A stretch of DNA of 24,015 bases from a virus (lineage: Duplodnaviria > Caudoviricetes). The stretch lies in the IMG/VR virus record IMGVR_UViG_3300033981_002233, positions 1 through 24,015 of that record, one strand, 5' to 3'. A program made the translations under genes and the position numbers. This document shows positions 1 to 20,123 of the stretch, piece after piece. The notes below the pieces were generated by a model that was given only the letters and a program-made list of their open reading frames with translations, was not told the origin of the DNA and did no database searches. The first letter of the stretch is position 1. Every line of letters starts with the position of its first letter.

Positions 1-1680
1 GGGCGGTTGTTCGTTAATGCGAGTGGGAATGTTGGGGTGGGCACTACGAGCCCTAGCTTTTTGCTTACTTGCGCCACAAGCGCAGATGGCGTTGATGGAG
101 TATCAGTCGAATCTCCAAGCCTTAATGGCGTCATCCGTTTGCGGGCTGATGGAACAAACGGAAACGCTATTCGGGTGGGAGGCGTAGGCGCTCAAGGGAA
201 TACTCTTCGTTTTCTTGTTGGATCAGACGTAGAACGCATGCGTATCGACTCCAGTGGGCGCTTAGGTCTGGGGACTACTTCGCCTGATGCGAATAGCCAG
301 CTTCATGTTGTTGGATCCAGTTATCAACCTTTATACATTAATACCACTGGCACTGGTGGGGGTGGCGCAGCGTTTCTTCGCTCAGGCACTCAAGCCCTTT
401 ATGTGGGCACCGCTGGGGGGAGCTGGCTTACTGGGTCTTCGACCGCAGATGGACTTATTCGATCAGAAGCAAATCTCATTTTTGGTATTGGCAACAGCGA
501 ACGCATGAGGATTGACTCCTCAGGTCGAGTAGGGATTGGCACTACTGCGCCTGCTACAACACTTGAAGTAAATGGAACAAGTTATGTTACGGATTTATTG
601 ATTCGCAATAATGCTGGAACTCCATCCTTGGGAACATCGCCTTGGCTGTATTCACCTGCCAGTGGGGCTTTAGCTATTGCCACCAATGCTAGTGAGCGCG
701 TGCGCATCGACAGCTCCGGCAGGCTCTTAGTTGGCACGTCTTCTGCCTCTAGCGCAGGTGCTTACGCGCAGTTTGGTCTAATCAAGATCCAAGGCAATAC
801 TTCGTCGTCAGGCGGATCAGCAATCCTCAATATCGCAAGGGGTGAAACCGCAACATCTATCACAAGCGGCGAAGACCTTGGCGCAATTTCATTCACAGAT
901 AGCAGCGGAAACGAGTTCGGCACTATCGTCTGCGCGGCTGATGGAACCGCTGGATCGAATGACTATCCGGGCCGCCTAGTGTTCTCCACTACCGCCGATG
1001 GAGCGAGCAGCCCGACGGAGCGGATGAGGATTACGAGCGCAGGAAATGCTTACATTGGTCGAATTGCTGACGGCGATGGACAAGGAATTTCATTACATGC
1101 AGATGGTTTTGTCAGGATCAATCGCAGCAGCGCAGTTCCTTTAGTTGTAAATAGAAACGGAGATGACGGAACTCTTGTCGAACTACGCCAAGCAGACGTA
1201 GTTGAAGGCACTATTTCTGTTTCCGGAACTACTGTTCAACTCAACGGCGCTCACCTTTCTCGCTGGTCCCAGCTTCTTAATGGCGGGCGCGAAGATATTC
1301 TGCGCGGCACTGTGCTAAGCAATCTGGATGAGATGTGCGAGTGGGGTGATCAAGATAATGAACAACTCAACCGCATGAAGGTTTCTGACGTTGAAGGTGA
1401 CCCGAACGTGTCTGGCGTGTTTGTCGATTGGGACAACGACGACGACACCTACACCGAAGACTTCTACTGCGCGATGACAGGTGACTTCATCATCCGCATT
1501 GCCGAAGGTGTCACGGTGCAGCGGGGCGACCTGCTGATGTCCGCTGGTGATGGAACCGCTAAACCGCAGGACGACGACATTGTCCGCAGCAAGACCATCG
1601 CCAAAGTGACCAGCACTCACGTCACCTGCACTTACGAGGATGGCAGCTACTGCGTGCCTTGCGTGCTGATGGCTTGCTAA
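1..1680 (+). CDS. Modular tail fibre / receptor-binding protein, 5'-truncated, with a putative C-terminal intramolecular chaperone (peptidase G2-like)
   Basis: Frame is open from base 1 (GRLFVNASG...). Repeated ERMRIDSSGRxGxGTT junction motifs separate variable G/S/T-rich modules. The C-terminal ~140 aa (...VQRGDLLMSAGDGTAKPQDDDIVRSKTIAKVTS...) resemble phage fibre auto-cleaving chaperone domains. Confidence 0.85.
   Translation, partial: GRLFVNASGNVGVGTTSPSFLLTCATSADGVDGVSVESPSLNGVIRLRADGTNGNAIRVGGVGAQGNTLRFLVGSDVERMRIDSSGRLGLGTTSPDANSQLHVVGSSYQPLYINTTGTGGGGAAFLRSGTQALYVGTAGGSWLTGSSTADGLIRSEANLIFGIGNSERMRIDSSGRVGIGTTAPATTLEVNGTSYVTDLLIRNNAGTPSLGTSPWLYSPASGALAIATNASERVRIDSSGRLLVGTSSASSAGAYAQFGLIKIQGNTSSSGGSAILNIARGETATSITSGEDLGAISFTDSSGNEFGTIVCAADGTAGSNDYPGRLVFSTTADGASSPTERMRITSAGNAYIGRIADGDGQGISLHADGFVRINRSSAVPLVVNRNGDDGTLVELRQADVVEGTISVSGTTVQLNGAHLSRWSQLLNGGREDILRGTVLSNLDEMCEWGDQDNEQLNRMKVSDVEGDPNVSGVFVDWDNDDDTYTEDFYCAMTGDFIIRIAEGVTVQRGDLLMSAGDGTAKPQDDDIVRSKTIAKVTSTHVTCTYEDGSYCVPCVLMAC
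30..48 (+). repeat. Candidate recombination site A1 (TGTTG-GGGTGGGCA-CTACG)
   Basis: Degenerate TAG-N9-CTA copy (TTG) encoding VGVGTT; same codon phase as A2 and A3. Confidence 0.5.
261..279 (+). repeat. Candidate recombination site A2 (CTTAG-GTCTGGGGA-CTACT)
   Basis: Exact TAG-N9-CTAC; arms identical to the intergenic site at 1685-1703; encodes LGLGTT. Confidence 0.65.
528..546 (+). repeat. Candidate recombination site A3 (AGTAG-GGATTGGCA-CTACT)
   Basis: Perfect 5-bp inverted arms around a 9-bp spacer; encodes VGIGTT. Its reverse complement matches 1685-1703 at 13/19 positions. Confidence 0.65.
975..993 (+). repeat. Candidate recombination site B1 (CCTAG-TGTTCTCCA-CTACC)
   Basis: Exact TAG-N9-CTAC encoding a different peptide (LVFSTT) in the same codon phase; pyrimidine-rich spacer. 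Confidence 0.6.
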
Positions 1681-1684
1681 ACCT

Positions 1685-1703
1685 CTTAGTCCTACTCTCT
1701 ACT
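1685..1703 (+). repeat. Candidate recombination site B2 (CTTAG-TCCTACTCT-CTACT)
   Basis: Intergenic, 4 bp after the fibre stop codon; exact TAG-N9-CTAC, so not explained by protein coding. Confidence 0.65.
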
Positions 1704-1725
1704 GGGCTTGACGCCGTGTTGTAAT

Positions 1726-1765
1726 GTGGTAGGGCAGCGAGTTTCCGGCTCCTGCCCACGGCCAC
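1726..1765 (+). promoter_or_regulatory. Structured leader hairpin upstream of the 57-aa ORF
   Basis: GGGCAG/CTGCCC and GAG/CTC stems around TTTCCGG, with outer GTGGT/GCCAC. TTGACG (1708) and TAATGT (1722) lie just upstream. Confidence 0.4.
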
Positions 1766-1780
1766 AGTTCCCCAAAAACC

Positions 1781-1954
1781 ATGACCAAACAAGAATATCG
1801 TGGCTCGCCCCACACATCTTGGGCTAAAGACGGAAAAGTCTTTTTAGCCAATGAAGAAGACAGTTACTACACCGAAGAGTTCCGAAGCCGCGAAGAACTG
1901 GAAGTCTTTATCCAGGAGTTGCGTGCCACCGCTGATAAAGCGTGGCCAAGCTGA
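1781..1954 (+). CDS. Hypothetical 57-aa acidic protein (MTKQEYRGSPHTSWAKDGKVFLANEEDSYYTEEFRSREELEVFIQELRATADKAWPS)
   Basis: Manually translated (not in the ORF track); ATG..TGA; fills the gap between sites B2 and B3. Confidence 0.75.
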   Translation: MTKQEYRGSPHTSWAKDGKVFLANEEDSYYTEEFRSREELEVFIQELRATADKAWPS

Positions 1955-1972
1955 TTAACCATTCCCCCTTAA
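1954..1972 (+). repeat. Candidate recombination site B3 (ATTAA-CCATTCCCC-CTTAA)
   Basis: Degenerate copy (TAA-N9-CTT) overlapping the last base of the 57-aa ORF stop; pyrimidine-rich spacer. Confidence 0.45.
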
Positions 1973-1977
1973 CGCTC

Positions 1978-2298
1978 ATGACGCGCTCCTTTTGGGAACT
2001 CACCAAGGGCTTCAATGCTGAGCGCCGGGAGCGCATAGAGCAGCGTAAAATTGAATTACGCCATGTGTCAAAACAAAGCCAGGAGCCGCTTTCCCAAGGT
2101 GTGGTGGAGCGCGACCCCGCGATCTGCTCGGGACAGCTTGTATTTAGCGGCACGCGGATTCCCGTGGCCGTGGTGGTGGAGCAATTGCGTGCTGGCGTCT
2201 CTCCCACAGAACTGCAGGAAGACTTTCCTCAACTTAGCCGCACCGCGCTGGACTACGCGGAGATCCAGGCCCAACACGCCAAAGACCAGCTTCAGTAG
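1978..2298 (+). CDS. DUF433-family protein (antitoxin-like HTH)
   Basis: VERDPAICSGQLVFSGTRIPVAVVVEQLRAGVSPTELQEDFPQL is the DUF433 signature. ATG 1978 preferred over GTG 1942, which overlaps the upstream gene. Confidence 0.85.
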   Translation: MTRSFWELTKGFNAERRERIEQRKIELRHVSKQSQEPLSQGVVERDPAICSGQLVFSGTRIPVAVVVEQLRAGVSPTELQEDFPQLSRTALDYAEIQAQHAKDQLQ

Positions 2299-2312
2299 TT
2301 GCTTTCGATACC
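2294..2312 (+). repeat. Candidate recombination site B4 (AGTAG-TTGCTTTCG-ATACC)
   Basis: Left arm AGTAG contains the DUF433 stop codon; right arm ATACC is one mismatch from CTACC. Confidence 0.5.
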
Positions 2313-2321
2313 AAGCATGGG

Positions 2322-2350
2322 TTGACAGCTTCTGTACAAGCGACTAGTCT
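2322..2350 (+). promoter_or_regulatory. Sigma70-type promoter of the recombinase
   Basis: TTGACA-17bp-TAGTCT, ending 21 bp before ATG 2372. Confidence 0.7.
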
Positions 2351-2371
2351 GGCCGTCTTCGCCCTCAAACC

Positions 2372-3226
2372 ATGCCCACCACTCTTGCGGAGCTTTGGAG
2401 TGCCTTCTTGGAAGAGCGCTCCATTTCTCTATGTCCAACCAGCTTGACTTCCGACTACAGGCAAGTAACAAAATGGTTAAAGCGTTGCCCAATTCAAGAC
2501 TTAAATGAAGCACGCAAAATCATGATTTGGGTGTTGGGAGAAAAGCCGGTGCTTTCTTCTAGACGCGTCGCAATGTATGCAAAAACAATGTTTCGCTGGG
2601 CAGCACAAGAAGACGTGGGTTACTTGGACAAGAATCCTCTTGCAAGCTTTAAAATGCCTAAAGCTCCGCAAAGAAACGAGGAAATTGTTGTAATTCCGCG
2701 AGATGAAGTGGGATTAGTCCTTGCAGCACTAGAAGCCAAGCAAACTTATAAAAATGTTAACTGGACTTGGTATACAGAATTTATGCTTCAAACCGCCATG
2801 CGAACTGGTGAAGTAAGAGCATTGCGATGGGACGATATCAAGGACAACAAGATTCTTGTGCATCAAAACTGGACCCTTACGCATGGATTAAAAGATAGTA
2901 CTAAAACAAACAAAAAGCGATGGGTGCCATTGAACAATAAATGTCAAGAAATTATGGCGCAACTTTCTCAAGACAATGAATATATTTTTCCATGGGATCG
3001 CTTGGCGTTTCAGAGTTATTTTCGTAAAAAACTGCAGCCATTACACCAAGCAGAGTTAATTAGTCATGCTTATCGCCCTTATGATTGCAGGCACACCGCG
3101 ATTAGCCGCTGGATTGAGGCGGGCATTCCAGTGCCACAGGTGGCAAACTGGGCTGGTAATACCAGTGAAATTATTTTTAAGCATTATTGCAATACCACCA
3201 AGGAGTACGAAATGCCGGAGCTGTAA
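2372..3226 (+). CDS. Tyrosine recombinase (core-binding + catalytic domains, no arm-binding domain)
   Basis: TAMRTGE (R144), STKT (K178), YDCRH (Y237-x-x-R240), WAGNT (N263), KHY (Y272); DKNPL linker; 284 aa. Confidence 0.93.
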   Translation: MPTTLAELWSAFLEERSISLCPTSLTSDYRQVTKWLKRCPIQDLNEARKIMIWVLGEKPVLSSRRVAMYAKTMFRWAAQEDVGYLDKNPLASFKMPKAPQRNEEIVVIPRDEVGLVLAALEAKQTYKNVNWTWYTEFMLQTAMRTGEVRALRWDDIKDNKILVHQNWTLTHGLKDSTKTNKKRWVPLNNKCQEIMAQLSQDNEYIFPWDRLAFQSYFRKKLQPLHQAELISHAYRPYDCRHTAISRWIEAGIPVPQVANWAGNTSEIIFKHYCNTTKEYEMPEL

Positions 3227-3262
3227 TTTGCTCTTACAATAAAGCAGGCTATTTTGTTAATC

Positions 3263-3583
3263 ATGGCTTCTTCCATTGAATTTACTTGGGGCGTCGCTAA
3301 TCTTGAGCGCACGCTGTCAGATGGTGTAGTGTACACCATTCATTACACCATTGATGCTTTTGACGGTACTTACCGTTCGGGGGCGTATGGCTCTCTCGGT
3401 CTTGAACCGCCTGAGCCCGACTCGCTTATTCCGTATGCTGATCTCACTGCTGAAATGGTAGTGGAATGGACGAAGGAGAAAATTGGCGAGGAGAAAGTGG
3501 CTGAAATTGAAGCCGCTCTTGCCGCTCAAATTCAGCAACAAATTGCCCCGACCACGGGCGCCGGCGTGCCTTGGGCTAGCTAA
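3263..3583 (+). CDS. Conserved phage protein, possible tail-fibre-associated/assembly protein
   Basis: FTWGVANLER...YGSLGL...IPYADLTAEMVVEWTK...GVPW resembles small proteins encoded next to phage fibres; ATG 3263 preferred. Confidence 0.65.
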   Translation: MASSIEFTWGVANLERTLSDGVVYTIHYTIDAFDGTYRSGAYGSLGLEPPEPDSLIPYADLTAEMVVEWTKEKIGEEKVAEIEAALAAQIQQQIAPTTGAGVPWAS

Positions 3584-3607
3584 TATAGTGCTTTCGCACG
3601 TCCACCA

Positions 3608-3745
3608 TTGGCCGTAAAAAGCAAAGTTGGCGCTTCTTCGTCAAAGCGCATTATCATCCGCAAGCCCAAAACCACGAAGCAAGGGCAAGGAAAAAATAGC
3701 AAAGCTTCTCATGGGCGCAAGCTCATGCGAGGTCAAGGTAAATAA
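3608..3745 (+). CDS. Small basic protein, 45 aa (MAVKSKVG...KTTKQGQGKNSK...RKLMRGQGK)
   Basis: Manually translated, TTG start. The RGQGK C-terminus resembles a small cyanophage protein family; a terminator follows directly. Confidence 0.7.
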   Translation: MAVKSKVGASSSKRIIIRKPKTTKQGQGKNSKASHGRKLMRGQGK

Positions 3746-3750
3746 AGCCA

Positions 3751-3778
3751 AGGGAGAGCAATGCTCTCCTTTTTTCTT
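3751..3778 (+). terminator. Intrinsic terminator
   Basis: GGAGAGC-AAT-GCTCTCC followed by TTTTTTCTT. Confidence 0.8.
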
Positions 3779-3834
3779 GTTTAAAACAATGCAAGGCTAT
3801 AATAAAACAAAACAGTTGGGGAGAAAAGGGAGAA

Positions 3835-4176
3835 ATGTATTATCCCGCCACTTACAACATAGTGGTGCTGCAAAACTCCACTTACCGCATGCAGATTACT
3901 GCTACGCAAAGCGGCGGCACTCCCATCAATCTTTCTGGATATACCATTGATAGCGATATTTGCGGCGCATTGGACGGAGAAATTGTTGCAAGTTTTGTAC
4001 CAGCTATTACAAATGCAGCTAGCGGAATTTTTCAATTGACATTGGCGCCAAGTGTTTCTAGCGGACTGGAAGTAGGAATTTATAATTATGACGTGAGTGC
4101 CACGCAAGCCGGTGGAGATCGTTATTACTGGCTAAAAGGCGTTTGCACTGTTTCCGGCACTTGTTCTAGGAATTAA
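3835..4176 (+). CDS. Virion adaptor protein (BppU-N/Ig-like), paralog of 6253-6591
   Basis: TPINLSGYTI...ASGIFQLTL...YNYDV...RYYWLKG motifs. Confidence 0.7.
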   Translation: MYYPATYNIVVLQNSTYRMQITATQSGGTPINLSGYTIDSDICGALDGEIVASFVPAITNAASGIFQLTLAPSVSSGLEVGIYNYDVSATQAGGDRYYWLKGVCTVSGTCSRN

Positions 4177-4178
4177 TC

Positions 4179-4994
4179 ATGCCCGATATCATTCTTACTG
4201 TTGTTAGTGGTGAGCCAGTTGCTATTGGTTTGTCCATCCCTGGCGTGCAAGGACCGATGGGACAGAGTACGTTGCCGTCTGGCGGTAGCGTGGGGCAAAT
4301 TATTGCCAAGGCTACAAGCGTAGATTATGACGCATCGTGGACTTCCACGGCTTCTGGCCTGACGCTTCGTAATTCAACTATTTCCGGCACCACTGTTTTA
4401 GGGACCATTTCTGGCGGCACTTATCAAGCGGCAACAATTACTGGCGCCACGATTAATGGGCCAACAATTAATGGAGGCACGGCCAATGGCACGGCATTGT
4501 CCAATGCAATTGTTGATCAATGCACTCTTGACAATTCAACGTTTGAAGACGGCACAATTTTCAACGTAACGCTTTCCGGCACCATCACTAACGTAGCCAC
4601 AGTTAGCAGTGGCACTTATAACAATGCAGTTATCACTTCCCCAACTATTTCTGGCGGCACATTAAACAATGTCACAATTAATTCGCCAACAGTATCCGGA
4701 GGTACTTTTGCTTCTTCCACAGTCAATTCCCCCACGCTTTCAGGAGGCACTTTAGCCGCCACCAGTATTTCGTCTTCCGCTTTAATTTTTCCAACCATTT
4801 CTGGAACCATCACTGCTTCTGGAGGCGTAACGATTTTTGCCAGTGGCGCATCGATGGGCTTCTTTGGCGCATCGCCCGTCGTCTGTCCATCTGGCATCTC
4901 CATTCCTAGTGGCGGTTCTTCCACTGCTGAAGTATTGACGGCCCTAAGCGGCGTCATTCTTGCCTTGCAAAATCTTGGCCTTATTCGTGCATAA
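4179..4994 (+). CDS. Fibre/spike-like protein with pentapeptide beta-helix-like repeats
   Basis: GVQGPMG and PSGGSVGQIIAK...YDASW N-terminus; many SPTISGGT-type repeats; C-terminal ALQNLGLI helix. Confidence 0.7.
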   Translation: MPDIILTVVSGEPVAIGLSIPGVQGPMGQSTLPSGGSVGQIIAKATSVDYDASWTSTASGLTLRNSTISGTTVLGTISGGTYQAATITGATINGPTINGGTANGTALSNAIVDQCTLDNSTFEDGTIFNVTLSGTITNVATVSSGTYNNAVITSPTISGGTLNNVTINSPTVSGGTFASSTVNSPTLSGGTLAATSISSSALIFPTISGTITASGGVTIFASGASMGFFGASPVVCPSGISIPSGGSSTAEVLTALSGVILALQNLGLIRA

Positions 4995-6998: not shown

Positions 6999-7960
6999 TG
7001 GCGAATACCATTCGCATTAAGAGGCGTGCAAGTGGTGCCGCTGGTGCCCCCACGAGCCTGGCAAATGCCGAACTTGCTTTTAATGAAGTTGATGACGTTC
7101 TTTATTACGGCAAAGGCACTGGTGGAGCAGGAGGTACTGCCACTACTGTTGAGGCGATTGGTGGAAGCGGAGCGTTTGTTACGCTAACTGGCAGCCAAAC
7201 TATTAGTGGTAATAAAACTTTTACTGGCACTGTTTCGTTTTCTGCTGTTAGTGGATTAACTACGATTGGTGATGCCACGATTGGTGGCAATCTTACTGTC
7301 AATGGCACCACTACAACTGTCAATAGTACAACTGTTCTTGTAGACGACAAAAATATTGAACTTGGTAGTATTGCAAGTCCCAGCGATACTACTGCCGATG
7401 GTGGCGGCATCACCCTTAAAGGCTCTACAGATAAAACTTTTAATTGGTCTAATGCCACTGATGCATGGACTAGTAGTGAGCATTTAGACCTTGCCAATGG
7501 CAAAGCCTTTTATATCAATGCCACGCAGGTATTAAGCGCCACTGCCTTGGGCGCGGGCGTGGTTTCGTCAAGCCTTACTAGCGTTGGCACGATTAGTGGT
7601 GGCACGTGGCAAGGCACGGCTGTTGCAGTGGCCTATGGCGGCACTGGTGCTGCCACTGCTTCCGGAGCCCGCACCAATCTTGGGCTGATTATTGGCACAA
7701 ACGTGCAGGCTTATGACGCAGATCTTGCGGCATTGGCGGGCGTTACGTCTGCTGCTGATAAAGTGCCCTATTTCACAGGCACTGCCACGGCTGATGTGGC
7801 TACGCTCACCAGTTTTGGCCGTAGCCTCATTGACGATGCTGACGCTGCTGCTGCCCGCACGACGCTTGGTCTTGGCACCATGTCCACACAGAATGCCAAT
7901 AATGTGAGCATCACTGGCGGCAGCATTGATGGCGTAGAGATTGATGGTGGTTCGTATTAG
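6998..7960 (+). CDS. Tail fibre-like protein
   Basis: MANTIRIKR...LANAELAFNE N-terminal attachment-type motif; GNLTVNGTTTTVNST; YGGTGATASGARTNLGL; C-terminal IDGGSY. Confidence 0.8.
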   Translation: MANTIRIKRRASGAAGAPTSLANAELAFNEVDDVLYYGKGTGGAGGTATTVEAIGGSGAFVTLTGSQTISGNKTFTGTVSFSAVSGLTTIGDATIGGNLTVNGTTTTVNSTTVLVDDKNIELGSIASPSDTTADGGGITLKGSTDKTFNWSNATDAWTSSEHLDLANGKAFYINATQVLSATALGAGVVSSSLTSVGTISGGTWQGTAVAVAYGGTGAATASGARTNLGLIIGTNVQAYDADLAALAGVTSAADKVPYFTGTATADVATLTSFGRSLIDDADAAAARTTLGLGTMSTQNANNVSITGGSIDGVEIDGGSY

Positions 7961-7990
7961 GGCTAAGATGGCGGCAAACGCTTTCTTTCC

Positions 7991-8188
7991 ATGAATCCTG
8001 AACTGTGGCCTGACAAATGGTATGAGCAAAAAATTGAAATGATCTCTGAAGCTCTTCAGGAGCTTCTTACTGATGGCGATGCAGCCAAGGCCAAGCAAGG
8101 GCTGATTGATTCCATTGCTTCGTGGACCAGTTATCACGAAGAGGAACTGGCCAAATGGAACCGGCTTAAAGCTCTTCTGGGCCTTTGA
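7991..8188 (+). CDS. Hypothetical helical protein, 65 aa
   Basis: ATG ORF with protein-like composition filling the gap before the convergent lysis cassette. Confidence 0.6.
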   Translation: MNPELWPDKWYEQKIEMISEALQELLTDGDAAKAKQGLIDSIASWTSYHEEELAKWNRLKALLGL

Positions 8189-8570
8189 GCTGGTAAGTGA
8201 TGCGAAGCTCTCCTCCGAGGGCCTTCACAGCCTCGCTGGCATCCGCTGGCAGGGCTTTCTCAATCATGACAGACGGAACAATGGCATTAGGCAAGGGCGT
8301 GACAATGGCATCAGGAAAAAGCTTTTTAGCTTGATCAGCCAAAGCATTGGCTTTTGTTTCTCTTTCTTTTTTTTCCCATTGTTTTACTAATGCTGCCGCT
8401 TGCTCGTCCACTTTTTCCATGACAATTTTGGTTTTCCATTCTGCCCAATCTGGCCGGCAATAAGCCATGAACATTTTGAACCATGGTTGAAAAGCAAGAG
8501 AGGGCCGTTTTGTAACGGCCCACAGTCCTGCTTCATAGCACAAAGCATTAAACCAGCTTTGGCCGCTCAT
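8166..8570 (-). CDS. Hypothetical protein in the lysis operon
   Basis: ATGA overlap with the endolysin stop codon; 134 aa. Confidence 0.7.
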   Translation of the reverse strand: MSGQSWFNALCYEAGLWAVTKRPSLAFQPWFKMFMAYCRPDWAEWKTKIVMEKVDEQAAALVKQWEKKERETKANALADQAKKLFPDAIVTPLPNAIVPSVMIEKALPADASEAVKALGGELRITYQLKGPEEL

Positions 8571-9511
8571 CCTTCTTGGAAAACACTGGCAAAGACGGTG
8601 CCAGCTTTAGTGAGAGGCAGAATGCGATCACGAAGATCAATATTATGACAGCGCACGCAACCATGCGTTGGGAAAAGAGGTTGCTTGGGTGCCCATGCGC
8701 CAGGCCAGCCGCATGCACTGCCGCCCCCATGAATCATCAGACCGGCGCGGCCAATGCCAGTTTCTTGCCCTTCTAAATCAATTAAATCAAAACTATACCA
8801 ACCGTAGGCCATAAGAGTGCGATCATAGGCGGGCTTATCTTTCTTGCTTTCATAGTCTTTGTAAATGGCACCAATTTTATAAACGCCAGGCGGCGTGTCA
8901 GAATTTTGCAGCTTAAATTCATTGTCAGAATATTGCCCGCGAGCAAGACAAGGAATTTCCCATAAAAATTCGCCTTCAAAATTAAAGGCTTTCATTGTTT
9001 CACTTATGTCATTAACAATGAGATGGGAATCTCCCTTTTTAAAACCAAACTGTTGGGGCTTTTTCTTGGGACCAATCATGATAATTTGCGTTGATTCAGG
9101 GGCATATTCTTTCATTAGCTTAGACAGTTTTATTGGATAGTCAGGATCAGTGGCATAGTGCTGCTCCTTTAATGCACGGGCCGCTGCGTAACGATTGGGC
9201 GCATTGTTGATACCTTTGAAATGACGATAGTCTTTATACCAGCGAGTGACAAGATAATCAATGCATGCAGCAAGGCTGGGAAAATCAATAAAACCAGCCT
9301 TAATGGTCACCCACTGACCGTCGTACCATTCTTGAGTGGTTGTGGCAGTGCCAGGTCCCTTCAAGCCAAGATAATTGTTTTTGCCACTGGTGTGCTTACC
9401 AAAGCCACTTTCTAAGCAGCATTGTGCTGCGACAAGCTCGGGATAGCGAGCGCCGCAACGACGGGCTGTCTGGAAGCATTCATTCCAGAACGCCCTACTA
9501 TCAGCCCACAT
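8567..9511 (-). CDS. Endolysin: GH73 glucosaminidase domain plus YkuD/L,D-transpeptidase-like domain
   Basis: AQCCLESGFGK, NNYLGLKG and YATDPDY (GH73); TPPGVYKIG, MIHGG and THGCVR (YkuD-like His/Cys motif). Confidence 0.88.
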   Translation of the reverse strand: MWADSRAFWNECFQTARRCGARYPELVAAQCCLESGFGKHTSGKNNYLGLKGPGTATTTQEWYDGQWVTIKAGFIDFPSLAACIDYLVTRWYKDYRHFKGINNAPNRYAAARALKEQHYATDPDYPIKLSKLMKEYAPESTQIIMIGPKKKPQQFGFKKGDSHLIVNDISETMKAFNFEGEFLWEIPCLARGQYSDNEFKLQNSDTPPGVYKIGAIYKDYESKKDKPAYDRTLMAYGWYSFDLIDLEGQETGIGRAGLMIHGGGSACGWPGAWAPKQPLFPTHGCVRCHNIDLRDRILPLTKAGTVFASVFQEG

Positions 9512-9520
9512 GACTAAGCC

Positions 9521-9664
9521 TCAGCCCTTCACGCGGAAAATAGTCTTCAGTCCTTCCAGAAGAAGCTGGAGCACGTTGTTGCTTTTCCAAGGGGAACGAT
9601 CAAGAATTTGATCTGCAGCAGCAATTAAAATGCCACCAATAACAAACCATTCAGCGCCGCTCAT
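9521..9664 (-). CDS. Small membrane protein, putative holin, 47 aa (MSGAEWFVIGGILIAAADQILDRSPWKSNNVLQLLLEGLKTIFRVKG)
   Basis: Manually translated; hydrophobic N-terminus, basic C-terminus; directly upstream of the endolysin. Confidence 0.65.
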   Translation of the reverse strand: MSGAEWFVIGGILIAAADQILDRSPWKSNNVLQLLLEGLKTIFRVKG

Positions 9665-9693
9665 TGTTTGATAAGCGAATTTATATTTACAGC

Positions 9694-9903
9694 CTAGCGT
9701 CGAATTTCTAAAGAACGCACCCTAGTTTCAAGAGTGGTGATATTTTCCGTAAGAGTGTCAAGCTTTTCCGTGATACTTTCAATTTGCGTGGCCACCTTAA
9801 CTTGTTGGTTCCCTACTGTAATTAACATTGCTCCAGTGGACAGCAGCATGCCAGCCGTCAATGTGGCTACAAAATTTGCAAGACCTTCTTGAAAATTTTT
9901 CAT
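9694..9903 (-). CDS. Membrane + coiled-coil protein (holin/lysis-associated candidate)
   Basis: One hydrophobic segment followed by heptad repeats (IESITEKLDTLTENITTLETRVRSLE). Confidence 0.65.
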   Translation of the reverse strand: MKNFQEGLANFVATLTAGMLLSTGAMLITVGNQQVKVATQIESITEKLDTLTENITTLETRVRSLEIRR

Positions 9904-9991
9904 TGATAGCAGTGCATTTATTAATTATAAACATTCTCATTGAGGCAAATTGAGCCGTTAGATTAGTGGCAAGAAAATTAAATATGCTCCC

Positions 9992-10471
9992 ATGCAAGTA
10001 GCGAATGGTCCCGATGAGCTGTTACATTCTCTCATTGAACTTCGCCCTGGAGATGCACGACGCCGATTTAGAAAAAGCATTTTTGAAGACTATCCACTGA
10101 AAGGACCGTTCGGGCAGTGTGCCTGTGCCTACTGCGGCAAGTGGAACGAAAAGCTTACTTTGGACCACATTGTTCCCAAAAGCAAGGGAGGTCCACATTT
10201 TGCAAAATATAATTTAGTGCCATCTTGCAAGAGCTGTAATTTAGATAAAGGGGCAGAGCGTATTTTTGAATGGTGGAGGCCGCAACAATTCTGGACGCCT
10301 CGTCGAGAAGAAATTTTGACGAGCTGGGTGCATTGCCATAGCTTTGTCAGTGCCCACACCTCCCTGCAAGATGTGGAAGCATATGCCGAGGATCGCGGCC
10401 TTTATATTCCTTCGCAAGAAAAAGCCCCCATTGTCGGGGGCTTTCTATTAGGAACAGTTTGCGCTGCTTAG
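9992..10471 (+). CDS. HNH endonuclease
   Basis: CAYCG...LTLDHIVPKSKGG...NLVPSCKSCNLDKG. Confidence 0.92.
   Translation: MQVANGPDELLHSLIELRPGDARRRFRKSIFEDYPLKGPFGQCACAYCGKWNEKLTLDHIVPKSKGGPHFAKYNLVPSCKSCNLDKGAERIFEWWRPQQFWTPRREEILTSWVHCHSFVSAHTSLQDVEAYAEDRGLYIPSQEKAPIVGGFLLGTVCAA
10416..10445 (-). terminator. Intrinsic terminator, possibly bidirectional, within the HNH 3' end
   Basis: AAAGCCCCC/GGGGGCTTT stem; U-tract on the minus strand, downstream of the DUF3310 gene. Confidence 0.6.
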
Positions 10472-10839
10472 CAATCGTTGATAGGAGAGAACATGGGCTC
10501 ATCAATGGCCCTTTCTCCAATGCGAGCGCCAGGCATGGGGCAGAAGCCGTCTTTACAATTGTTTTCAATGGCATCAAGGGCTTCCTTCTCTTGCTCCATT
10601 TCCATGGCAAAGATGAGAGCCTTTAGATACCACTTGGCTTTCTTTAAATCTTCCAGGCCGTTTTTATTTTCATAGCGCCAAACATATTTGACGATATTGC
10701 CCTTGAGAAAGCCGCGAAAGGCTTCAGGGCTCATGCAAGCTTCTAGTGCTTCAATGGCCTCGATGCCACCAGATGCATAGTGCATGGGGCTGTTAACTGG
10801 ATCAAACACTTTAGGGCGACCTTCAAAAGGAACAGTCAT
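10468..10839 (-). CDS. DUF3310 protein (T7 gp1.7-like nucleotide kinase family)
   Basis: DPVNSPMHYASGGIEAIEAL...GFLKGNIVKYVWRYENKNGLEDLKKAKWYL. ATG 10839 preferred, to minimise overlap with thyX. Confidence 0.88.
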   Translation of the reverse strand: MTVPFEGRPKVFDPVNSPMHYASGGIEAIEALEACMSPEAFRGFLKGNIVKYVWRYENKNGLEDLKKAKWYLKALIFAMEMEQEKEALDAIENNCKDGFCPMPGARIGERAIDEPMFSPINDC

Positions 10840-11539
10840 TGGCTTCAAAAGCATCAAAAGCCTCTCGGAACAGAGGCCGTGCCAGCAAGGATAGTGCCTG
10901 AGCATAGGCTTGGATTTCACCTTGAGCATCTGCTGGTGAGCGAAGGCTGATGAAATGCAGCAATGCTTGCAAACTACAGGTCCAGGTGAAGGAAGTATAG
11001 AGCGACGTGGGCAGTACGCCACGAGCTTGTTCTTTACTCACACCAAGCGCCATGAGCGTCTGATAAGCGCCTTTGGCGGCCTGCAAGCCCTTGGCATATT
11101 CAATCATGGCTATCTCATTGGAGCGGCCTTCCAGGGGGCCGGCTGAGGCTTGTTTATTGCTATCGCTTTGCTGGCGAAACTCACGAGGCATGTAAAATTC
11201 TTCACTATCAGCTTCACAATATCTAAAGCTTTTTTCGTTCCAGCCCAATTGGTCATTGGCATAAGTGCCGCCAATAACGTGCTTCCACCATTGCCGAGCA
11301 ATGAAGAGAGGAGCTTTTACTTGCCACTTCGTTACAACACCACGGAACGGGCTGGTATGTTGATGCTTAACTAAATAATTCAGGAGTTTTTGGTCTTTCT
11401 CCGACCATTCAGCGCTGCTTTGGCCAAAAGATTGGCGAGCATCGCAGACGATATCAATAGAACTGCCCATCCAGTCAATAAGACGCACAAAGCTGATGCC
11501 ATCGTTCAAAGGATCAATAGAGGAGTTAATGGGAGCCAT
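10823..11539 (-). CDS. thyX: FAD-dependent thymidylate synthase ThyX
   Basis: YLVKHQHTSPF, APLFIARQW, WNEKSFRY, EQARGVLP, FISLR and AQGEIQAYA; ATG 11539 preferred. Confidence 0.9.
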   Translation of the reverse strand: MAPINSSIDPLNDGISFVRLIDWMGSSIDIVCDARQSFGQSSAEWSEKDQKLLNYLVKHQHTSPFRGVVTKWQVKAPLFIARQWWKHVIGGTYANDQLGWNEKSFRYCEADSEEFYMPREFRQQSDSNKQASAGPLEGRSNEIAMIEYAKGLQAAKGAYQTLMALGVSKEQARGVLPTSLYTSFTWTCSLQALLHFISLRSPADAQGEIQAYAQALSLLARPLFREAFDAFEANDCSF

Positions 11540-11810
11540 GAAACAGAGAGGCCGGGCGTAAACGCTGCAAGCTGATTGTAGGCGAGATCTTGGTTTCTGA
11601 ATGCCAGACAACTACTGCCCGTTTCTTTCCACCATTAAAAACAAAACCAATGAGAGTACCGACAATGCTAGTCAGCATCCATCCTGCTGCTGTTGGCTGC
11701 ACATATACCACTTCTTCTCCAGGGCACCATTCGTGATCGCGCGGGGTGTGTGGAAGCTGAAATGGACGGTGCTCCGTAGCTTTAATTACGGCTTTCTTTC
11801 CATCGTCCAC
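11526..11810 (-). CDS. Hypothetical protein (start uncertain)
   Basis: ORF overlapping the thyX start. GTG 11810 chosen because the longer start (11885) overlaps the divergent gene. Confidence 0.55.
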   Translation of the reverse strand: MDDGKKAVIKATEHRPFQLPHTPRDHEWCPGEEVVYVQPTAAGWMLTSIVGTLIGFVFNGGKKRAVVVWHSETKISPTISLQRLRPASLFHGSH

Positions 11811-11873
11811 CTTGTAAACAAACTGTCTGCCATAGCCCCTCCTGGTTAGGCTAAAGCAAACAGTTTTGGAATA

Positions 11874-12245
11874 ATGTCCACGCATTTCTCTATTCCAGTA
11901 GAGTTAAGCTATCAAGGCCGTCCTTACATTGCTGCCATGGGTCCGTTTGAACGCAGTTTAGAAAGAGACTTCGCTTTGGCTGCCAATAAGCGTGCCATTG
12001 CAGAATGCTCTGACGTGGAAAAACTGCGGGAAGTGGCAGTAAATTTAATGGAAGGTTGGTCCAACATGCAAGAGGCTGTGGGCTCGTTGGTTAAGGAAAA
12101 CCTGGAGCTGCGTCAAGCCATGTCCGTGAAAGAATGGGATTTGCAAGCTGCTGCTGAACTGCTCGATGAAGCTACGCAAATGGTCAATGACGAAGTGCAG
12201 CGGCAATCTTCTCAAGCCAAAAGGCGTCTTTGGCCGTTTGGCTAG
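11874..12245 (+). CDS. Hypothetical helical protein; central part weakly NblA-like
   Basis: 123-aa ATG ORF; SLERDFAL...EKLREVAVNLMEGWSNMQEAVGSLVKE. Confidence 0.65.
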   Translation: MSTHFSIPVELSYQGRPYIAAMGPFERSLERDFALAANKRAIAECSDVEKLREVAVNLMEGWSNMQEAVGSLVKENLELRQAMSVKEWDLQAAAELLDEATQMVNDEVQRQSSQAKRRLWPFG

Positions 12246-12543
12246 TCAATAAAAACACTCTCCATCCTCCCATTGTGGCGAGGTTGAACTTTCGGGCATC
12301 ACGCTCATAACCACTGCCGGTAACGTGACGGCCTCGATTGAAAGTTCCGCCTTGGATTTCAATGAGGCTATTGGATGGGAGGTGAGCGAAGTCAGCCCGA
12401 TAACGCTTAGATCGTTTTGATTTTGCATAGCGCTCTTGAAAATCAGCTTCCCAAGTGGGAACATCACTGAATTCTCTGATCAATGTGAGATCGGGATAGT
12501 GAGCTTGCCACAGTCCGAGAAACTGATCTTCAAGGGCACTCAC
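12184..12543 (-). CDS. Vsr/DUF559-like PD-(D/E)xK endonuclease
   Basis: RYRADFAH...IEIQGG...GRH...GYERDARKFNLATMGGWRVFLLT. Confidence 0.8.
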   Translation of the reverse strand: MSALEDQFLGLWQAHYPDLTLIREFSDVPTWEADFQERYAKSKRSKRYRADFAHLPSNSLIEIQGGTFNRGRHVTGSGYERDARKFNLATMGGWRVFLLTSQTAKDAFWLEKIAAALRH

Positions 12544-12546
12544 GCA

Positions 12547-13131
12547 TCAGACGGCAGCGAAAGATACTTTAGCGCCTTGATTCTGATACTTTCCTTTGCC
12601 ATAGGCTTGGCCTACGTCGCCAGAAAGCTGCATAAACATGATTTGCACTATGCCTTCATTGGCATAAATGCGAGCCGGAAAAGCCAGGGGATTGACAATA
12701 CAAATAGTGAGAAAGCCAGACCAACCAGGCTCAATTGGCGTAACGTTAATGATGGTGCCTTGACGTGCATACGTACTTTTCCCATCGCATATGCCCATCA
12801 CATTGTTGGGCATCGTGATGCGTTCAAGACTAACGCCTAATGCGTAGGAAAAAGGAGGCAAAACAAAAAATGTGCTGCCAAGTTCTTCGATAGGCGTGGC
12901 TTCATACATCATGCTCTCATCAAAACGCTTCACATCCAGCGCCCTGACTTCCTGGTTGTTGTTGATGACCATGAAGCCCTTAGGGGACAGGCGAAGGTCG
13001 TAACCAGCGTGCGACAGGCCATAGGACAATGCCTTGGTGCCATTGTCAAGCTCACGGCGCTTTTCGCCAGTGAAGGGAAAGATAATATCGTTTTCAGCGA
13101 GGATGCTGATTTCTTTGTCAGCGAGAAGCAT
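12547..13131 (-). CDS. dcd: dCTP deaminase-family protein (trimeric dUTPase superfamily)
   Basis: LSYGLSHAGYDLRL, GKSTYARQG, TPIEPGWSG, IYANEGIVQ, GKYQNQ; ATG 13131. The catalytic Glu appears replaced by Cys (see findings). Confidence 0.85.
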   Translation of the reverse strand: MLLADKEISILAENDIIFPFTGEKRRELDNGTKALSYGLSHAGYDLRLSPKGFMVINNNQEVRALDVKRFDESMMYEATPIEELGSTFFVLPPFSYALGVSLERITMPNNVMGICDGKSTYARQGTIINVTPIEPGWSGFLTICIVNPLAFPARIYANEGIVQIMFMQLSGDVGQAYGKGKYQNQGAKVSFAAV

Positions 13132-13318
13132 CGTTTGAAGAGCGAGAGAACAAGCCCATAGAGAGCCAAACAAGAATTGCGGCAGGCCAAAAGGGCACAG
13201 ACGGCCAGATTGACTGGACCGCCCATGCCCCTAAACAAGCCGCTCCAAAACTAATGCCTAAAACAATGGCCACTGCCAAAAGGTAGATGGGCCAATCAAT
13301 AGGCTCGGAGCGCTTCAT
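13118..13318 (-). CDS. Small two-TM membrane protein
   Basis: Two hydrophobic segments; tightly coupled within the operon. Confidence 0.7.
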   Translation of the reverse strand: MKRSEPIDWPIYLLAVAIVLGISFGAACLGAWAVQSIWPSVPFWPAAILVWLSMGLFSRSSNDASR

Positions 13319-13320
13319 GA

Positions 13321-13605
13321 TCAGAACAGATCGTCAGAAGACGAGGAGCGGCTGCTGCTGCCAGCGCCGTTGCCATCGTTCTTCCAGAAGCTGGAATAAG
13401 CCTTAGGGCTGTTCTCCATCTTGTTGACGGTCACTTGCCCTTTGAAATGAGGGGAGGTGTCCTTATCGCGCTTGTCGTTGTCCCACAGCGCCACGCGGAA
13501 GCTGTAGTTACCCTGGGCGTTAGGGCCGGCTTTTTTAGCAGCATTAAGAATGTCGGGGGTGAGATCGACAGTGCCGCTAAACACGGGAAGGTTGCCAGAG
13601 GGCAT
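13321..13605 (-). CDS. Putative single-stranded DNA-binding protein
   Basis: Beta-rich core (RVALWDN...SPHFKGQV), flexible G/S linker and acidic-aromatic tail DDLF; lies next to the exonuclease and annealase. Confidence 0.6.
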   Translation of the reverse strand: MPSGNLPVFSGTVDLTPDILNAAKKAGPNAQGNYSFRVALWDNDKRDKDTSPHFKGQVTVNKMENSPKAYSSFWKNDGNGAGSSSRSSSSDDLF

Positions 13606-13676
13606 TGTTTGTTCCTCAAAGGAGTGTAGTGGGCCCTGGACGGGCTGCTCCAGCTTAAGCCCGTTTCACCAAAAGA

Positions 13677-14444
13677 CTATGTCCCGCGATCTATAGAAAT
13701 TGTTAAGGGCATCCCGCCTGGATAGTGGTCGAAGAAATACTGTTGCGTCTTTTGCACCATCAGCCCCGCTTGCATGGCAAGCTCCCCTGCCGACAAGCTC
13801 ACCACTTGCGCTTCCTGACCTTTCTCCGTGTCGGGATCATAAATGGCGATGGCGCAATGCGCTTCATTAATTTCAATGTCATACATCTGCTCAATGGCCT
13901 GCACATAGGCTCCGAGCTGCATGCGATAATCGGCTAGCTGTGTATCAGGCTTTTGCTTGTAGCTGGTCTTCCAATCGAGCAGCGCATAGTCACCATTATT
14001 CATCTTGGCGAGCATGTCAAACGTGCCTGAATAGCCAATTTGTCTGGCATTGTCATACCAAGCGATGGCGCTTTCAATGAGAAGAGGACTATCTACTTTC
14101 TCAAGGAACGATGAAATGGAAGTGAAATAGGGCACGTAGTTTGGATGGGAATCAAGATGACAATTCACATCCTCTCCATTCCATAGATCCTCCAACACGC
14201 CATGCAGCCAATTGCCACGATCTACGGCATTACGAGTGCGGCGATTCGCTTCCGCATCGCCCACTTTCTTGCGCCAGTTCATGAGCGCCGCAATTTTGCC
14301 AGGGGGCGAACACGCGCTCGCAATAGTCGTCACAGAGGGCAAAACACACCCTCCGGGGACATTGGGAAAATCGTCGCAAACGTAGTATCTCTTTTTGTTG
14401 ATCTGCAGCCGGTTGGGTTCGTATCGTGCGAGCTTGGGCATCAT
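13677..14444 (-). CDS. PD-(D/E)xK exonuclease
   Basis: LPSVTTI, WRKKVG, RGNWLH, YSGTFDM, LLDWKTS, QLGAY; ATG 14444 or 14441. Confidence 0.88.
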   Translation of the reverse strand: MMPKLARYEPNRLQINKKRYYVCDDFPNVPGGCVLPSVTTIASACSPPGKIAALMNWRKKVGDAEANRRTRNAVDRGNWLHGVLEDLWNGEDVNCHLDSHPNYVPYFTSISSFLEKVDSPLLIESAIAWYDNARQIGYSGTFDMLAKMNNGDYALLDWKTSYKQKPDTQLADYRMQLGAYVQAIEQMYDIEINEAHCAIAIYDPDTEKGQEAQVVSLSAGELAMQAGLMVQKTQQYFFDHYPGGMPLTISIDRGT

Positions 14445-14476
14445 GAGCCTGTTTAGACACAGATCGTAACAGGCCA

Positions 14477-14719
14477 TCAGCGGCTGCCATAGCTCTTCGT
14501 GCAATAATTTCCATTTTGGTACGTATTAAGCGGACAGCTTGCACCCGGCGATGCTGGTATCGACCATTTGGTGCGATTACCGTAGCTTGGCACGCAATAT
14601 CCAGACGAGGAATAGTAGCCAAGAGGGCAACTATTGCCACTTTGCTGAATAGGAAATGTTTGCGCCAATGCGGAGAATGGCGCTGCTGCAATGCAGCAAA
14701 TGGCGAGAATAGTTTTCAT
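14477..14719 (-). CDS. Secreted Cys-rich small protein
   Basis: Signal peptide MKTILAICCIAAAPFSALA; two CPLxxYxxxxYC repeats; ATGA overlap with the upstream gene. Confidence 0.75.
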   Translation of the reverse strand: MKTILAICCIAAAPFSALAQTFPIQQSGNSCPLGYYSSSGYCVPSYGNRTKWSIPASPGASCPLNTYQNGNYCTKSYGSR

Positions 14720-15036
14720 TTTTCGTTTACGTCCCAAAAGTAATCGCAGCCTTCTTCAGTGAATGGCGGCGTGCCGAAATAGCTTTGCCAACGATCAGCA
14801 GGCGCGAGATAACGCCAACAATTTTCGCGGACAGGACATTCGCCCCCTTCGCACATTGCAATGTCAGGCATGAGGATTTTGTTTGAAATTTGAGCAAGGT
14901 ATTGGCGATCCACAAGAGGATCGTCAGCAAGAACTTTGAAAACAGCAGCAATGCGAAGATCGCTACTGAGGCCATCGTCAGGCCAATTCCAAAATGCCTC
15001 GTGGCATTTGTCAAGGAGGGCTTCATGATTCTTCAT
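14716..15036 (-). CDS. Hypothetical protein with a C-terminal Cys4 domain
   Basis: PDIAMCEGGECPVRENCWRY...QSYF...CDYFW. Confidence 0.72.
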   Translation of the reverse strand: MKNHEALLDKCHEAFWNWPDDGLSSDLRIAAVFKVLADDPLVDRQYLAQISNKILMPDIAMCEGGECPVRENCWRYLAPADRWQSYFGTPPFTEEGCDYFWDVNEK

Positions 15037-15250
15037 GAACGATGGTTGATGGGCGAATACTTTCCATTTCTTCTAGAACGGCAGCAAAACCATCAATAAT
15101 GTTGCTGTCGCAAAAGCCAGCCCCACGGAGGAAGTGGGAAAAGTTTTCAATCACTTCACGACAAAAATTAGTGTCGGAAGTCATGGTTAAATGGAGATCG
15201 CCTTCGCGATAGCCATAAGTCCATTTTCCTATCGGGAAATCATGGTCCAT
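15023..15250 (-). CDS. Hypothetical protein, 75 aa
   Basis: Coupled within the operon; EVIENFSHFLRGAGF motif. Confidence 0.7.
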   Translation of the reverse strand: MDHDFPIGKWTYGYREGDLHLTMTSDTNFCREVIENFSHFLRGAGFCDSNIIDGFAAVLEEMESIRPSTIVHEES

Positions 15251-15363
15251 AGCAAATAAACGAGGAGGGCAACGATAAGGGCAATGAGAAAAACCAAAAG
15301 GAAAAGTCCTAATGGGTCATGAGCCAAATAAGGCGGAAGGAGATTCAGAAATGGGAAGTCCAT
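15229..15363 (-). CDS. Small membrane protein, 44 aa (MDFPFLNLLPPYLAHDPLGLFLLVFLIALIVALLVYLLWTMISR)
   Basis: Manually translated; single strong TM helix; fills the operon gap. Confidence 0.6.
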   Translation of the reverse strand: MDFPFLNLLPPYLAHDPLGLFLLVFLIALIVALLVYLLWTMISR

Positions 15364-15420
15364 CGCTGTCTAAGCACAAGGATCCAGCAAAGGCCCGCGC
15401 AAGGCGGGCCGCTGCCAGGT

Positions 15421-16362
15421 CTATTGCTTTTTTGCGACGAACGCTGCCACTTTGGCTGCCATCTCGTCCACTGTTGTGGCCGCAATGATGATGTCCAGCT
15501 CAGCTCGCATATCGGCCTTAGTAATGCGAATTTGCTGGTCCTTCGCCCAGAGGGTGACCATGGCAGAAACAACATTGCCAAAATGCTGCCAGCTCTTGAT
15601 TTCCGTGGCGCGGGTCATGCCAAGTGTGTCAAGGGCAGCTTTGCCAGCAGTGAGGCTGCGCTGTTCATCTTGGTAGCCCAGCGGATCGGCTTTGCAGAAG
15701 CTTGTCAGGGCCTCTTTGGCATCGAAAGCGGCGGCAGGAGCTGCCTCTGCTCCAGCATCAGCAGCATCTGCTGCAACTGGCGCTTCCTTCTTGCTTCCCC
15801 GCGTTGCAGGCTTCGGAGTTTCCTGTTGGAGCGCGAGTTTGGTCGTTGCTTTTTCATCTTCCTTGGGAATGTCCTCGCCTGCATAAAGACGCAGGCCGAG
15901 GCCAGTGAAGGTGGCAATACACTTAACGGCAGCACGCTGGCAGTTGTCGCTGATAGCGCGACCATCAAGCTGTTGGATGGCATTGTGCTTGCGGTCCATC
16001 ACGGGAAAGATCAGCGCCACTGTGCGCTTGATGCCGTCCGTCAAATAAGGGCGCAGATAATAGTAGCCAGGTCCGCCAAACACCACTTCGCCAATGGTCT
16101 TTTCTTCAAAAGCCACGAAGAGGGCGGGGAAATGCTCCTTGAGGTAGCGGTAGGCAAATGGCCACGACAGATAGGACAGGCCCTTGTAATCCTTTTCGAT
16201 GTGGGGGCCAATGTCAGGGGTGTCGTAAGCCTTCTTGAATTCACCAGCAGTGATTTCCAGAGGGGCGAACACACCGTTGTAGCGATCCATCATTGCTTGT
16301 TTGGAAAAGTCGTCCATTTGGGAAAAGTCGGAAGGAGAATAAAGCGTAAAGGAACTGGTCAT
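15421..16362 (-). CDS. Sak3/DUF1071-like single-strand annealing protein
   Basis: LSYLSWPFAY, FPVMDRKHNAI, CQRAAVKCIA and GLGLRLYAGEDIP. Confidence 0.85.
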   Translation of the reverse strand: MTSSFTLYSPSDFSQMDDFSKQAMMDRYNGVFAPLEITAGEFKKAYDTPDIGPHIEKDYKGLSYLSWPFAYRYLKEHFPALFVAFEEKTIGEVVFGGPGYYYLRPYLTDGIKRTVALIFPVMDRKHNAIQQLDGRAISDNCQRAAVKCIATFTGLGLRLYAGEDIPKEDEKATTKLALQQETPKPATRGSKKEAPVAADAADAGAEAAPAAAFDAKEALTSFCKADPLGYQDEQRSLTAGKAALDTLGMTRATEIKSWQHFGNVVSAMVTLWAKDQQIRITKADMRAELDIIIAATTVDEMAAKVAAFVAKKQ

Positions 16363-16887: not shown

Positions 16888-16900
16888 GGACAACGTGGCC

Positions 16901-16929
16901 ATGTTAGCCATAGTTCCCTGGGGCGTCAA
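16901..16929 (-). promoter_or_regulatory. Sigma70-type promoter of the leftward operon
   Basis: Minus strand TTGACG-17bp-TAACAT. Confidence 0.65.
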
Positions 16930-17020
16930 CCACGGGCTTTCTGAAGCTCGCCTTAAGAAACAGCAGGGGGCTTACAGGACGGCTTTTTCCTGCTAGAACC
17001 GCCCTATCTCTTGCTACGCC

Positions 17021-18985: not shown

Positions 18986-18997
18986 TCAATAGTGAGG

Positions 18998-20111: not shown

Positions 20112-20123
20112 ATAGAAAAGCGT

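Follow-up and report, generated by a model that had tools for sequence, protein, structure and literature searches.

In the Rin shufflon of Bifidobacterium prophages (PMC6109161), an arm-less tyrosine recombinase ends the locus of a receptor-binding protein, with one site inside the gene and another just past its 3' end. On plasmid R64, the Rci/sfx shufflon (PMC11852207) alters the distal portion of an adhesin by means of 31-bp sites made of a 12-bp arm, a 7-bp core and a 12-bp arm, and the archaeal virus phiCh1 has a tyrosine invertase of its tail-fibre module (PMC8651126). Inversion systems of cyanophages have been called scarcely reported, the only case given being a 30-kb segment between long repeats (10.64898/2026.02.14.705889, a 2026 preprint). 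We analysed a linear virus record of 24,015 bases from a lake cyanophage (IMG/VR record IMGVR_UViG_3300033981_002233; "the window" is this whole stretch), which shares part of the Rin layout: sites lie inside a tail-fibre gene and just past its 3' end, and a gene for a predicted arm-less tyrosine recombinase ends the locus. The sites have the same 12-7-12 form as those of R64. We consider it probable that the eight 31-bp sites of this locus are the targets of the adjacent recombinase, which would exchange modules between two phage genomes where their cores match.

The nearest isolate to the window is Synechococcus phage S-LBS1, whose integrase A12 is 78% identical to the window protein, also lies directly after the tail-fibre gene and is adjoined by the same sites. 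The published account takes A12 for a lysogeny integrase and proposes that its att sites lie in the portal and helicase genes; the available part of that paper does not mention the sites at the fibre (PMC6157547).

Sites with common arms and slot-specific cores

Each site is a 31-bp dyad in which two 12-bp arms enclose a 7-bp core (consensus AGGCCCAGTAGT-N7-ACTACTGAGCCT). The sequence-only reading had proposed seven 19-mers at 30, 261, 528, 975, 1685, 1954 and 2294, built of 5-bp arms around a 9-bp spacer and arranged as two opposed arrays around a core at 547-974. The seven 19-mers read as claimed and all are real sites, but the architecture is the longer one given above, and an eighth site was missed at 726-744, inside the proposed core. 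The opposed arrays are not supported either: the eight cores of the window are all different and, by inspection, include no reverse-complement pair, and fibre motifs on the minus strand occur in only 3 of the loci L001-L177, none of them a flip of 547-974.

A matrix was built from 77 non-coding sites of 41 related loci, neither the window nor its near-identical strains being among them, and was run over the 24-kb window both in full and with the middle 7 bases masked (arms-only). The best seven full-matrix matches, at 1685, 528 (both strands), 1954, 975, 2294 and 30, fall on six of the sites first proposed, and 261 came 11th; the top six arms-only matches were 1685, 528, 30, 726, 261 and 975. 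A matrix scan had been suggested as a check on the sites: it recovered them, but they are not confined to loci that bear the enzyme. The sites at 1954 and 2294 are called degenerate because of their arms-only ranks. The features of the locus are the following.

1..1680, plus strand: 3' (distal) part of a modular tail-fibre gene, 5' end beyond the window (PHROG tail fibre, E 1e-42)
24..54: site (19-mer at 30), core GGTGGGC, peptide VGVGTT, left arm degenerate, arms-only rank 3
255..285: site (19-mer at 261), core TCTGGGG, peptide LGLGTT, arms-only rank 5
522..552: site (19-mer at 528), core GATTGGC, peptide VGIGTT, arms-only rank 2
720..750: site (19-mer at 726-744), core TGGCACG, peptide LLVGTS, in phase, arms-only rank 4
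969..999: site (19-mer at 975), core GTTCTCC, peptide LVFSTT, arms-only rank 6
1679..1709: non-coding site past the fibre stop (19-mer at 1685), core CCTACTC, rank 1 with both matrices
1781..1954, plus strand: 57-aa cargo gene for which no family was found, absent in L004 and L007
1948..1978: degenerate site (19-mer at 1954), core CATTCCC, full-matrix rank 3, arms-only rank 14
1978..2298, plus strand: DUF433 cargo gene, 106 aa from the ATG at 1978 (PF04255, E 7e-16)
2288..2318: degenerate last site (19-mer at 2294), core TGCTTTC, its TAG being the DUF433 stop, arms-only rank 10
2372..3226, plus strand: predicted arm-less tyrosine recombinase, 284 aa (PF00589)
3263..3583, plus strand: DUF7936 gene, right-hand anchor of the array (PF25590)

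The motif TAG-N9-CTAC occurs four times on the plus strand of 1-1710 and not at all in the other 22.3 kb, when 0.04-0.10 are expected; with spacers of 3-8 and 10-15, TAG and CTAC were never paired in 1-1710. Synonymous-codon reshuffling of the fibre open reading frame gave at least three such motifs in 70 of 20,000 trials. Chance or an artefact of the peptide repeats is ruled out by the held-out matrices, by the constraint on codons and by this reshuffling. An artefact of stop codons is ruled out as well, since only in 49 of 120 loci does the TAG or TAA of the first non-coding site serve as the stop of the fibre gene.

The constraint on synonymous codons, a check that had been proposed beforehand, held. 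Joints beside the recombinase keep both TAG and CT in 70 of 82 cases for the VGIGT class, 53 of 57 for LLVGTS and 38 of 45 for LVFST (non-redundant counts), whereas the codons required for TAG and CT make up only 18-30% of the synonyms elsewhere in the same fibre genes. Conservation at the coding joints, profiled by conditioning on the core and not on TAG or CT, falls immediately beyond 14-15 bp. Relative to VGIGT, the TAG of the LLVGTS class is shifted one codon downstream within the peptide repeat, with its spacing to CT unchanged, and two further coding classes, VAIST and VDGTP, have the same site form. All in-gene sites lie in one codon phase, as had been claimed for the first copies, so that exchange would preserve the reading frame. 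The 3' ends of the fibres of L097, L098, L117, L126 and L160 show a second junction dialect with a AACCCGCCCCGTG-like motif; in these fibres the VGIGT joints are mostly without TAG and CT, and no recombinase was seen adjoining them.

In five site sets, the left and right arms show no covariation, and shuffled arms pair at least as well, as would suit recognition of each half-site by a protein rather than a hairpin. An RNA hairpin is ruled out by this lack of covariation and by the lack of any Rfam match in 1-4200.

Each slot has its own 7-bp core, and about ten cores follow one another in fixed order; after the fibre, this order is CCTACTC, CATT(A/C)CC, CGCTTCC and CACCTTC. The same cores are found in the podoviruses S-CBP4, S-CBP3 and WH11-B and in the siphovirus S-LBS1, and a 16-mer of the site at 969..999 is present in about 760 viral stretches. 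Inside recombinase arrays, none of 102 pairs of non-coding sites shares a core, when 23 are expected from the pool. The sequence-only reading had supposed that the enzyme tolerates unlike spacers, and in this it was probably wrong: cores differ between slots, match between genomes and are unrepeated within arrays, as predicted for an enzyme that requires homology. A few genes are found behind different cores.

Mosaic ends and inverted fibre halves

Strains with 94-100% identical recombinases differ by entire cargo genes and fibre modules. The recombinases of L004 and L007 are 99% and 94% identical to that of the window, yet both loci are without the 57-aa cargo gene; an extra gene of L005 sits at the joint matching the site at 1948..1978. 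The window fibre, homologous to those of S-CBP1/3/4 and S-LBS1, is a mosaic when compared with near-identical strains: identity begins at the TAG of a site with L002 (at 1685, complete from TTAG), L003 (at 726, TTAG) and L004 (at 261), and the homology with L002 stops at 47, inside the site at 24..54.

The same was found when the ends of near-identical shared segments were placed in 248 non-redundant regions and counted as lying at a site from -6 to +20. Sites account for 33 of 73 ends (22 of 42 on the left, 11 of 31 on the right), against at most 7.2% expected, which upholds the claim that fibre modules and cargo genes are exchangeable units bounded by the sites. The left ends peak at the TAG (12) or at the first core base (5), the right ends at the last core base (7). 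Near-identical flanks around a replaced middle were seen in 21 pairs, 14 of which return to near-identity at a non-coding site; three pairs have both ends at sites within the preset limits, and three more miss these limits by 3 bases, two of the latter joining a phage that bears the recombinase gene with one that does not. Contigs assembled from 8 sequencing runs break or show loose ends at sites, and among the joints listed for these runs (contigs only) there was no circle and no strand-change joint.

An arm-less tyrosine recombinase joins dyad sites with matching cores, and the outcome is deletion between direct copies and inversion between inverted ones. The enzyme of the window would act only on matching cores, and would swap fibre modules and cargo genes rather than delete its own. 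Unlike cores in series would protect an array from deletion, yet leave it open to a second genome with the same cores. Exchange would take place between two genomes in one cell, i.e., upon co-infection, and two crossovers could replace any slot or run of slots. It would suffice that one partner has the enzyme, and this would account for sites in phages that lack the gene. As the window has no pair of matching cores, only exchange between genomes is predicted for it. An active enzyme would also delete between identical direct cores, and identical intact cores occur as direct repeats in none of 24 loci with the recombinase but in 9 of 31 without it (Fisher p 0.003), the 24 loci being related and amounting to about 16 recombinase clusters. 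The repeats of identical cores flank unlike sequence and are not tandem misassemblies.

One lineage carries a matching core in inverted orientation. In L083 and L303-L306, a full or partial fibre and a small gene are followed by an inverted second distal half without its N-terminal part, which ends about 156 bp before the recombinase at a site with the core GATTGGC, the core of the window site at 522..552. This site shares nothing with its in-gene partner beyond about 26 bp. The middle segment (the small gene and one distal half) has one orientation in L083 and L304 and the opposite one in L303, L305 and L306; the contigs of opposite orientation are related, and their shared half is about 86% identical. 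Here the same chemistry would bring the spare fibre half into the expressed gene by inversion. In L014, the spare position opens with the same 14 bases as the expressed module of L306, and in L306 itself one fibre module occurs in both the expressed and the spare half (402-705 and 1893-2196, 97% identity). The inverted architecture was seen only beside the recombinase gene, except in L112, where two complete convergent fibre genes (7001-10228) carry identical C cores and almost identical B cores in inverted orientation; there is no recombinase in that locus, which ends soon after.

Other loci and other parts of the window add some observations on cargo and gene order. The DUF433 gene of the window (1978-2298) resembles a fusion, its MTRSF...ERRERIEQ start being a separate gene of 39-52 aa in L015, L033, L038 and L044. 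An HNH endonuclease gene is the cargo after the first non-coding site in L004 (1785-2276) and L034 (1244-1735). In L009 (223-3650), a diversity-generating retroelement with an Mtd-type target gene, bAvd and a reverse transcriptase takes the usual fibre position, and the same site array and recombinase then follow. The window encodes endolysin, HNH, ThyX, dCTP deaminase, exonuclease and primase-helicase at 8567-21000. The listed sequencing data sets that match it are 24 of DNA and none of RNA, all of those listed being lake metagenomes.

The recombinase and the rival explanations

The 284-aa recombinase ends soon after its catalytic tyrosine. Residues R144, K178, Y237-x-x-R240, W260 and Y272 are invariant in 15 of 15 aligned proteins, at identities down to 44%, with Y237 in the first H position of the catalytic R-K-(H)-R-(H/W)-Y set. 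Longer relatives (350-400 aa) align from about their residue 80, and the window protein is without their N-terminal arm-binding region of roughly 80 residues; its structural model resembles Tn1549 Int(82-397) and lambda Int(75-356) over the core-binding and catalytic domains, at 14-16% identity. Judged by catalytic set and domain content, the protein is of the arm-less tyrosine recombinase type. NCBIfam gave no match to an IntI model and only weak matches to XerC/XerD, far below the cut-off, and a sequence search of the PDB gave no match. The tree of the recombinases comes from a quick-mode run and is used descriptively only. The earlier placing of the last site 9 bp before a promoter stands for the TTGACA at 2322, which lies 9 bp past the 2294 site and ahead of the recombinase gene; a sigma-70 scan of 1600-3400 found no full promoter site.

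In 64 loci, 121 matrix matches (partly training data) lie at most 3.5 kb upstream of the recombinase gene; the gene itself, some 95 kb beyond that stretch on the upstream side and some 379 kb on the downstream side have none. In 62 of these loci DUF7936 comes next, at most 150 bp away and without an intervening site, so that the recombinase is not packaged like cargo. The family adjoins such sites beside three different tail-gene sets, and homologues of 49-67% identity carry the same site form nearby: arrays of MSPIYV/MSWVIT genes, with cores of their own, precede two recombinase clades; in a convergent clade by DUF7483 genes, the recombinase's own stop codon lies inside a site arm; and about 700 bp past a 49% homologue there is a 21-bit site, close to where a convergent gene cluster with tail-like repeats ends. 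At distant homologues in loci without this fibre, a site of at least 9 bits lies at the gene in 12 of 38 loci, compared with 7.4% of 391 control windows. VGIGT-class joints are intact in 89 of 166 cases without the recombinase, as against 70 of 82 with it. In S-LBS1, the best-scoring sites lie at the fibre beside the gene annotated as integrase. This comparative evidence points to the adjacent tyrosine recombinase as the likely acting enzyme. Homologues of 63-67% in L066, L373, L374 and L340-L349 have no fibre motif or clear site, and may use a diverged site or be inactive here. In L307 (54-5064), a 45% homologue stands where two clusters of similar tail genes converge, possibly an inversion arrangement with another site; the full matrix gives no site in this locus, the sole one from the scan with P0123, which was excluded from the arms-only test.

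Several observations weigh against matched-core exchange by the adjacent enzyme. Of 48 fibre loci in which both the C-site and DUF7936 are visible, 40 are without the recombinase gene; the complete genomes of S-CBP4 and WH11-B keep intact fibre sites, and that of S-RIP1 its post-fibre site, without any PF00589 gene; and 26 of the 38 distant homologue loci have no strong site at the gene. Non-coding cores are likewise unrepeated where there is no recombinase gene (1 of 52 pairs), and in loci fetched independently of the enzyme the contrast in duplicate cores is 0 of 7 versus 9 of 30 (p 0.16). Of the mosaic ends, 27 of 73 lie more than 70 bp from any site, so that other recombination acts too; the right break of L004 falls 27 bp short of a site, and only 3 of the 21 flank-middle-flank pairs have both ends at sites within the preset limits. 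The inverted halves have 53-304 bp in common, enough for homologous recombination to invert them as well. The many site-bearing phages without the gene and the off-site ends, together with the conserved blocks of 40-58 bases that adjoin the 726 and 975 sites (about 58 bp directly after 969..999), the annotated annealing protein of S-LBS1 and the precedent of PeSL shuffling in T4-type phages (PMC2839356), would suit a rather unlikely account in which ordinary homologous recombination at module and gene joints (through RecA or phage single-strand annealing proteins) has preserved the sites as frozen spellings, and the recombinase is a passenger or a lysogeny integrase. Such an account leaves unexplained why the same dyad arms surround different cores across peptide classes and non-coding joints, and why crossovers at non-coding sites are limited to about 7-13 bp; nor does it fit the recombinase gene, which unlike cargo has no site behind it. 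A part in lysogeny is unsupported here, because two pattern-based scans of limited sensitivity over 185,579 species genomes found no cyanobacterial homologue (the close matches being three short contigs in non-cyanobacterial metagenome-assembled genomes) and mitomycin C induction of S-LBS1 showed no integration (PMC6157547). The best sites of S-LBS1 also speak against it, lying as they do at the fibre.

The sites could instead be recognised by another protein, such as a host Xer-like recombinase, with the adjacent gene riding along, much as dif modules are mobilised by Xer. The intact sites in complete genomes without a tyrosine recombinase would suit this, as would the hosts of the carriers, all apparently picocyanobacteria (inferred from isolates). 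We find it improbable nonetheless: joints are more often intact and duplicate cores depleted where the gene is present, the inverted architecture, L112 apart, is seen only beside it, and the non-coding site pattern has 9 matches in genome contigs, none of them cyanobacterial and one with fibre motifs (a second genome scan for a site pattern gave 5 matches, one being the contig of L083; matches in such scans are mostly due to chance). Highly improbable, in our view, is an enzyme that is indifferent to spacer differences and works on the cassettes of a single genome as integrons do, by excision, insertion or inversion. Cargo genes are gained and lost at the sites, a few stand behind different cores, and the top fold match is the Tn1549 integrase, whose group is homology-independent, though the identity is only 15%; the fixed order of unrepeated cores, the lack of hairpin covariation, of a reverse-complement core pair in the window, and of circles or strand-change joints among those listed for the 8 runs all argue the other way. 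A second recombinase was not found in a 40-kb contig from the phage of the window.

Matched-core exchange by the adjacent recombinase might also be part of something larger, for which we put the odds at slightly less than even. One recombinase family would read about ten mutually incompatible cores on common arms, several of them in fibre codons, in a multi-slot exchange system of unrelated cyanophages (podoviruses and a siphovirus). As a public good acting in trans on phages without the gene, the enzyme of a minority would keep host-range modules and cargo genes interchangeable throughout the community, as a common pool, and the system would become a shufflon when a matching core is captured inverted.

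Relation to described systems

The system is real and widespread, and is a new form of recombinase-linked fibre variation. We found no description of it in the literature searched, which covered few subscription papers and no supplements. If the proposed function is true, cyanophages have a dedicated mechanism for tail-fibre mosaicism and for gene flow between unrelated phages at a likely host-range locus, a natural plug-and-play trade of host-range parts among phages. The S-LBS1 'integrase', which has been taken to indicate lysogeny among Synechococcus phages, would be reassigned, and a small Cre-like enzyme would come with about ten naturally selected, presumably orthogonal cores usable inside reading frames.

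As in an integron, the recombinase of this locus stands at the end of a variable array of co-oriented genes. Integron attC sites fold as single-strand hairpins, whereas the arms here pair no better than shuffled ones. The PeSL cassettes of T4-type phages (PMC2839356) are alike in that short repeated elements at gene joints drive modular shuffling. Each PeSL is a promoter with a stem-loop terminator, a unit that the window sites do not form: they show no stem covariation, lie in frame in several places and have slot-specific cores.

With the shufflons the likeness extends to enzyme and site. Still, sfx has one core and a variable left arm (PMC11852207), whereas here both arms follow one dyad consensus and the core varies; Rci has an extra C-terminal domain (PMC11852207), whereas the window protein ends shortly after the catalytic tyrosine. 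Rin works by inversion within a genome at one repeated asymmetric 11-bp site and keeps inverted spare distal halves (PMC6109161); here the arms are symmetric, each slot has its core, and such halves are found only in the lineage of L083 and L303-L306. Unlike Rin, most loci have no inverted partner, and sites occur also in phages without the enzyme. The window itself has neither inverted sites of the same core, as seen in L083, L014 and L303-L306, nor a single core throughout. Its logic is that of engineered cassette exchange with heterospecific lox sites, where incompatible cores flank a slot and exchange with a second molecule is favoured over deletion. The lox version is a laboratory method; here about ten cores stand in series, several in a reading frame, and we found no natural phage case of heterospecific cassette exchange in the literature searched. 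By analogy, then, the system of the window would seem to work like Rin and Rci in the type of its enzyme and the geometry of its sites, and like engineered cassette exchange in its logic.

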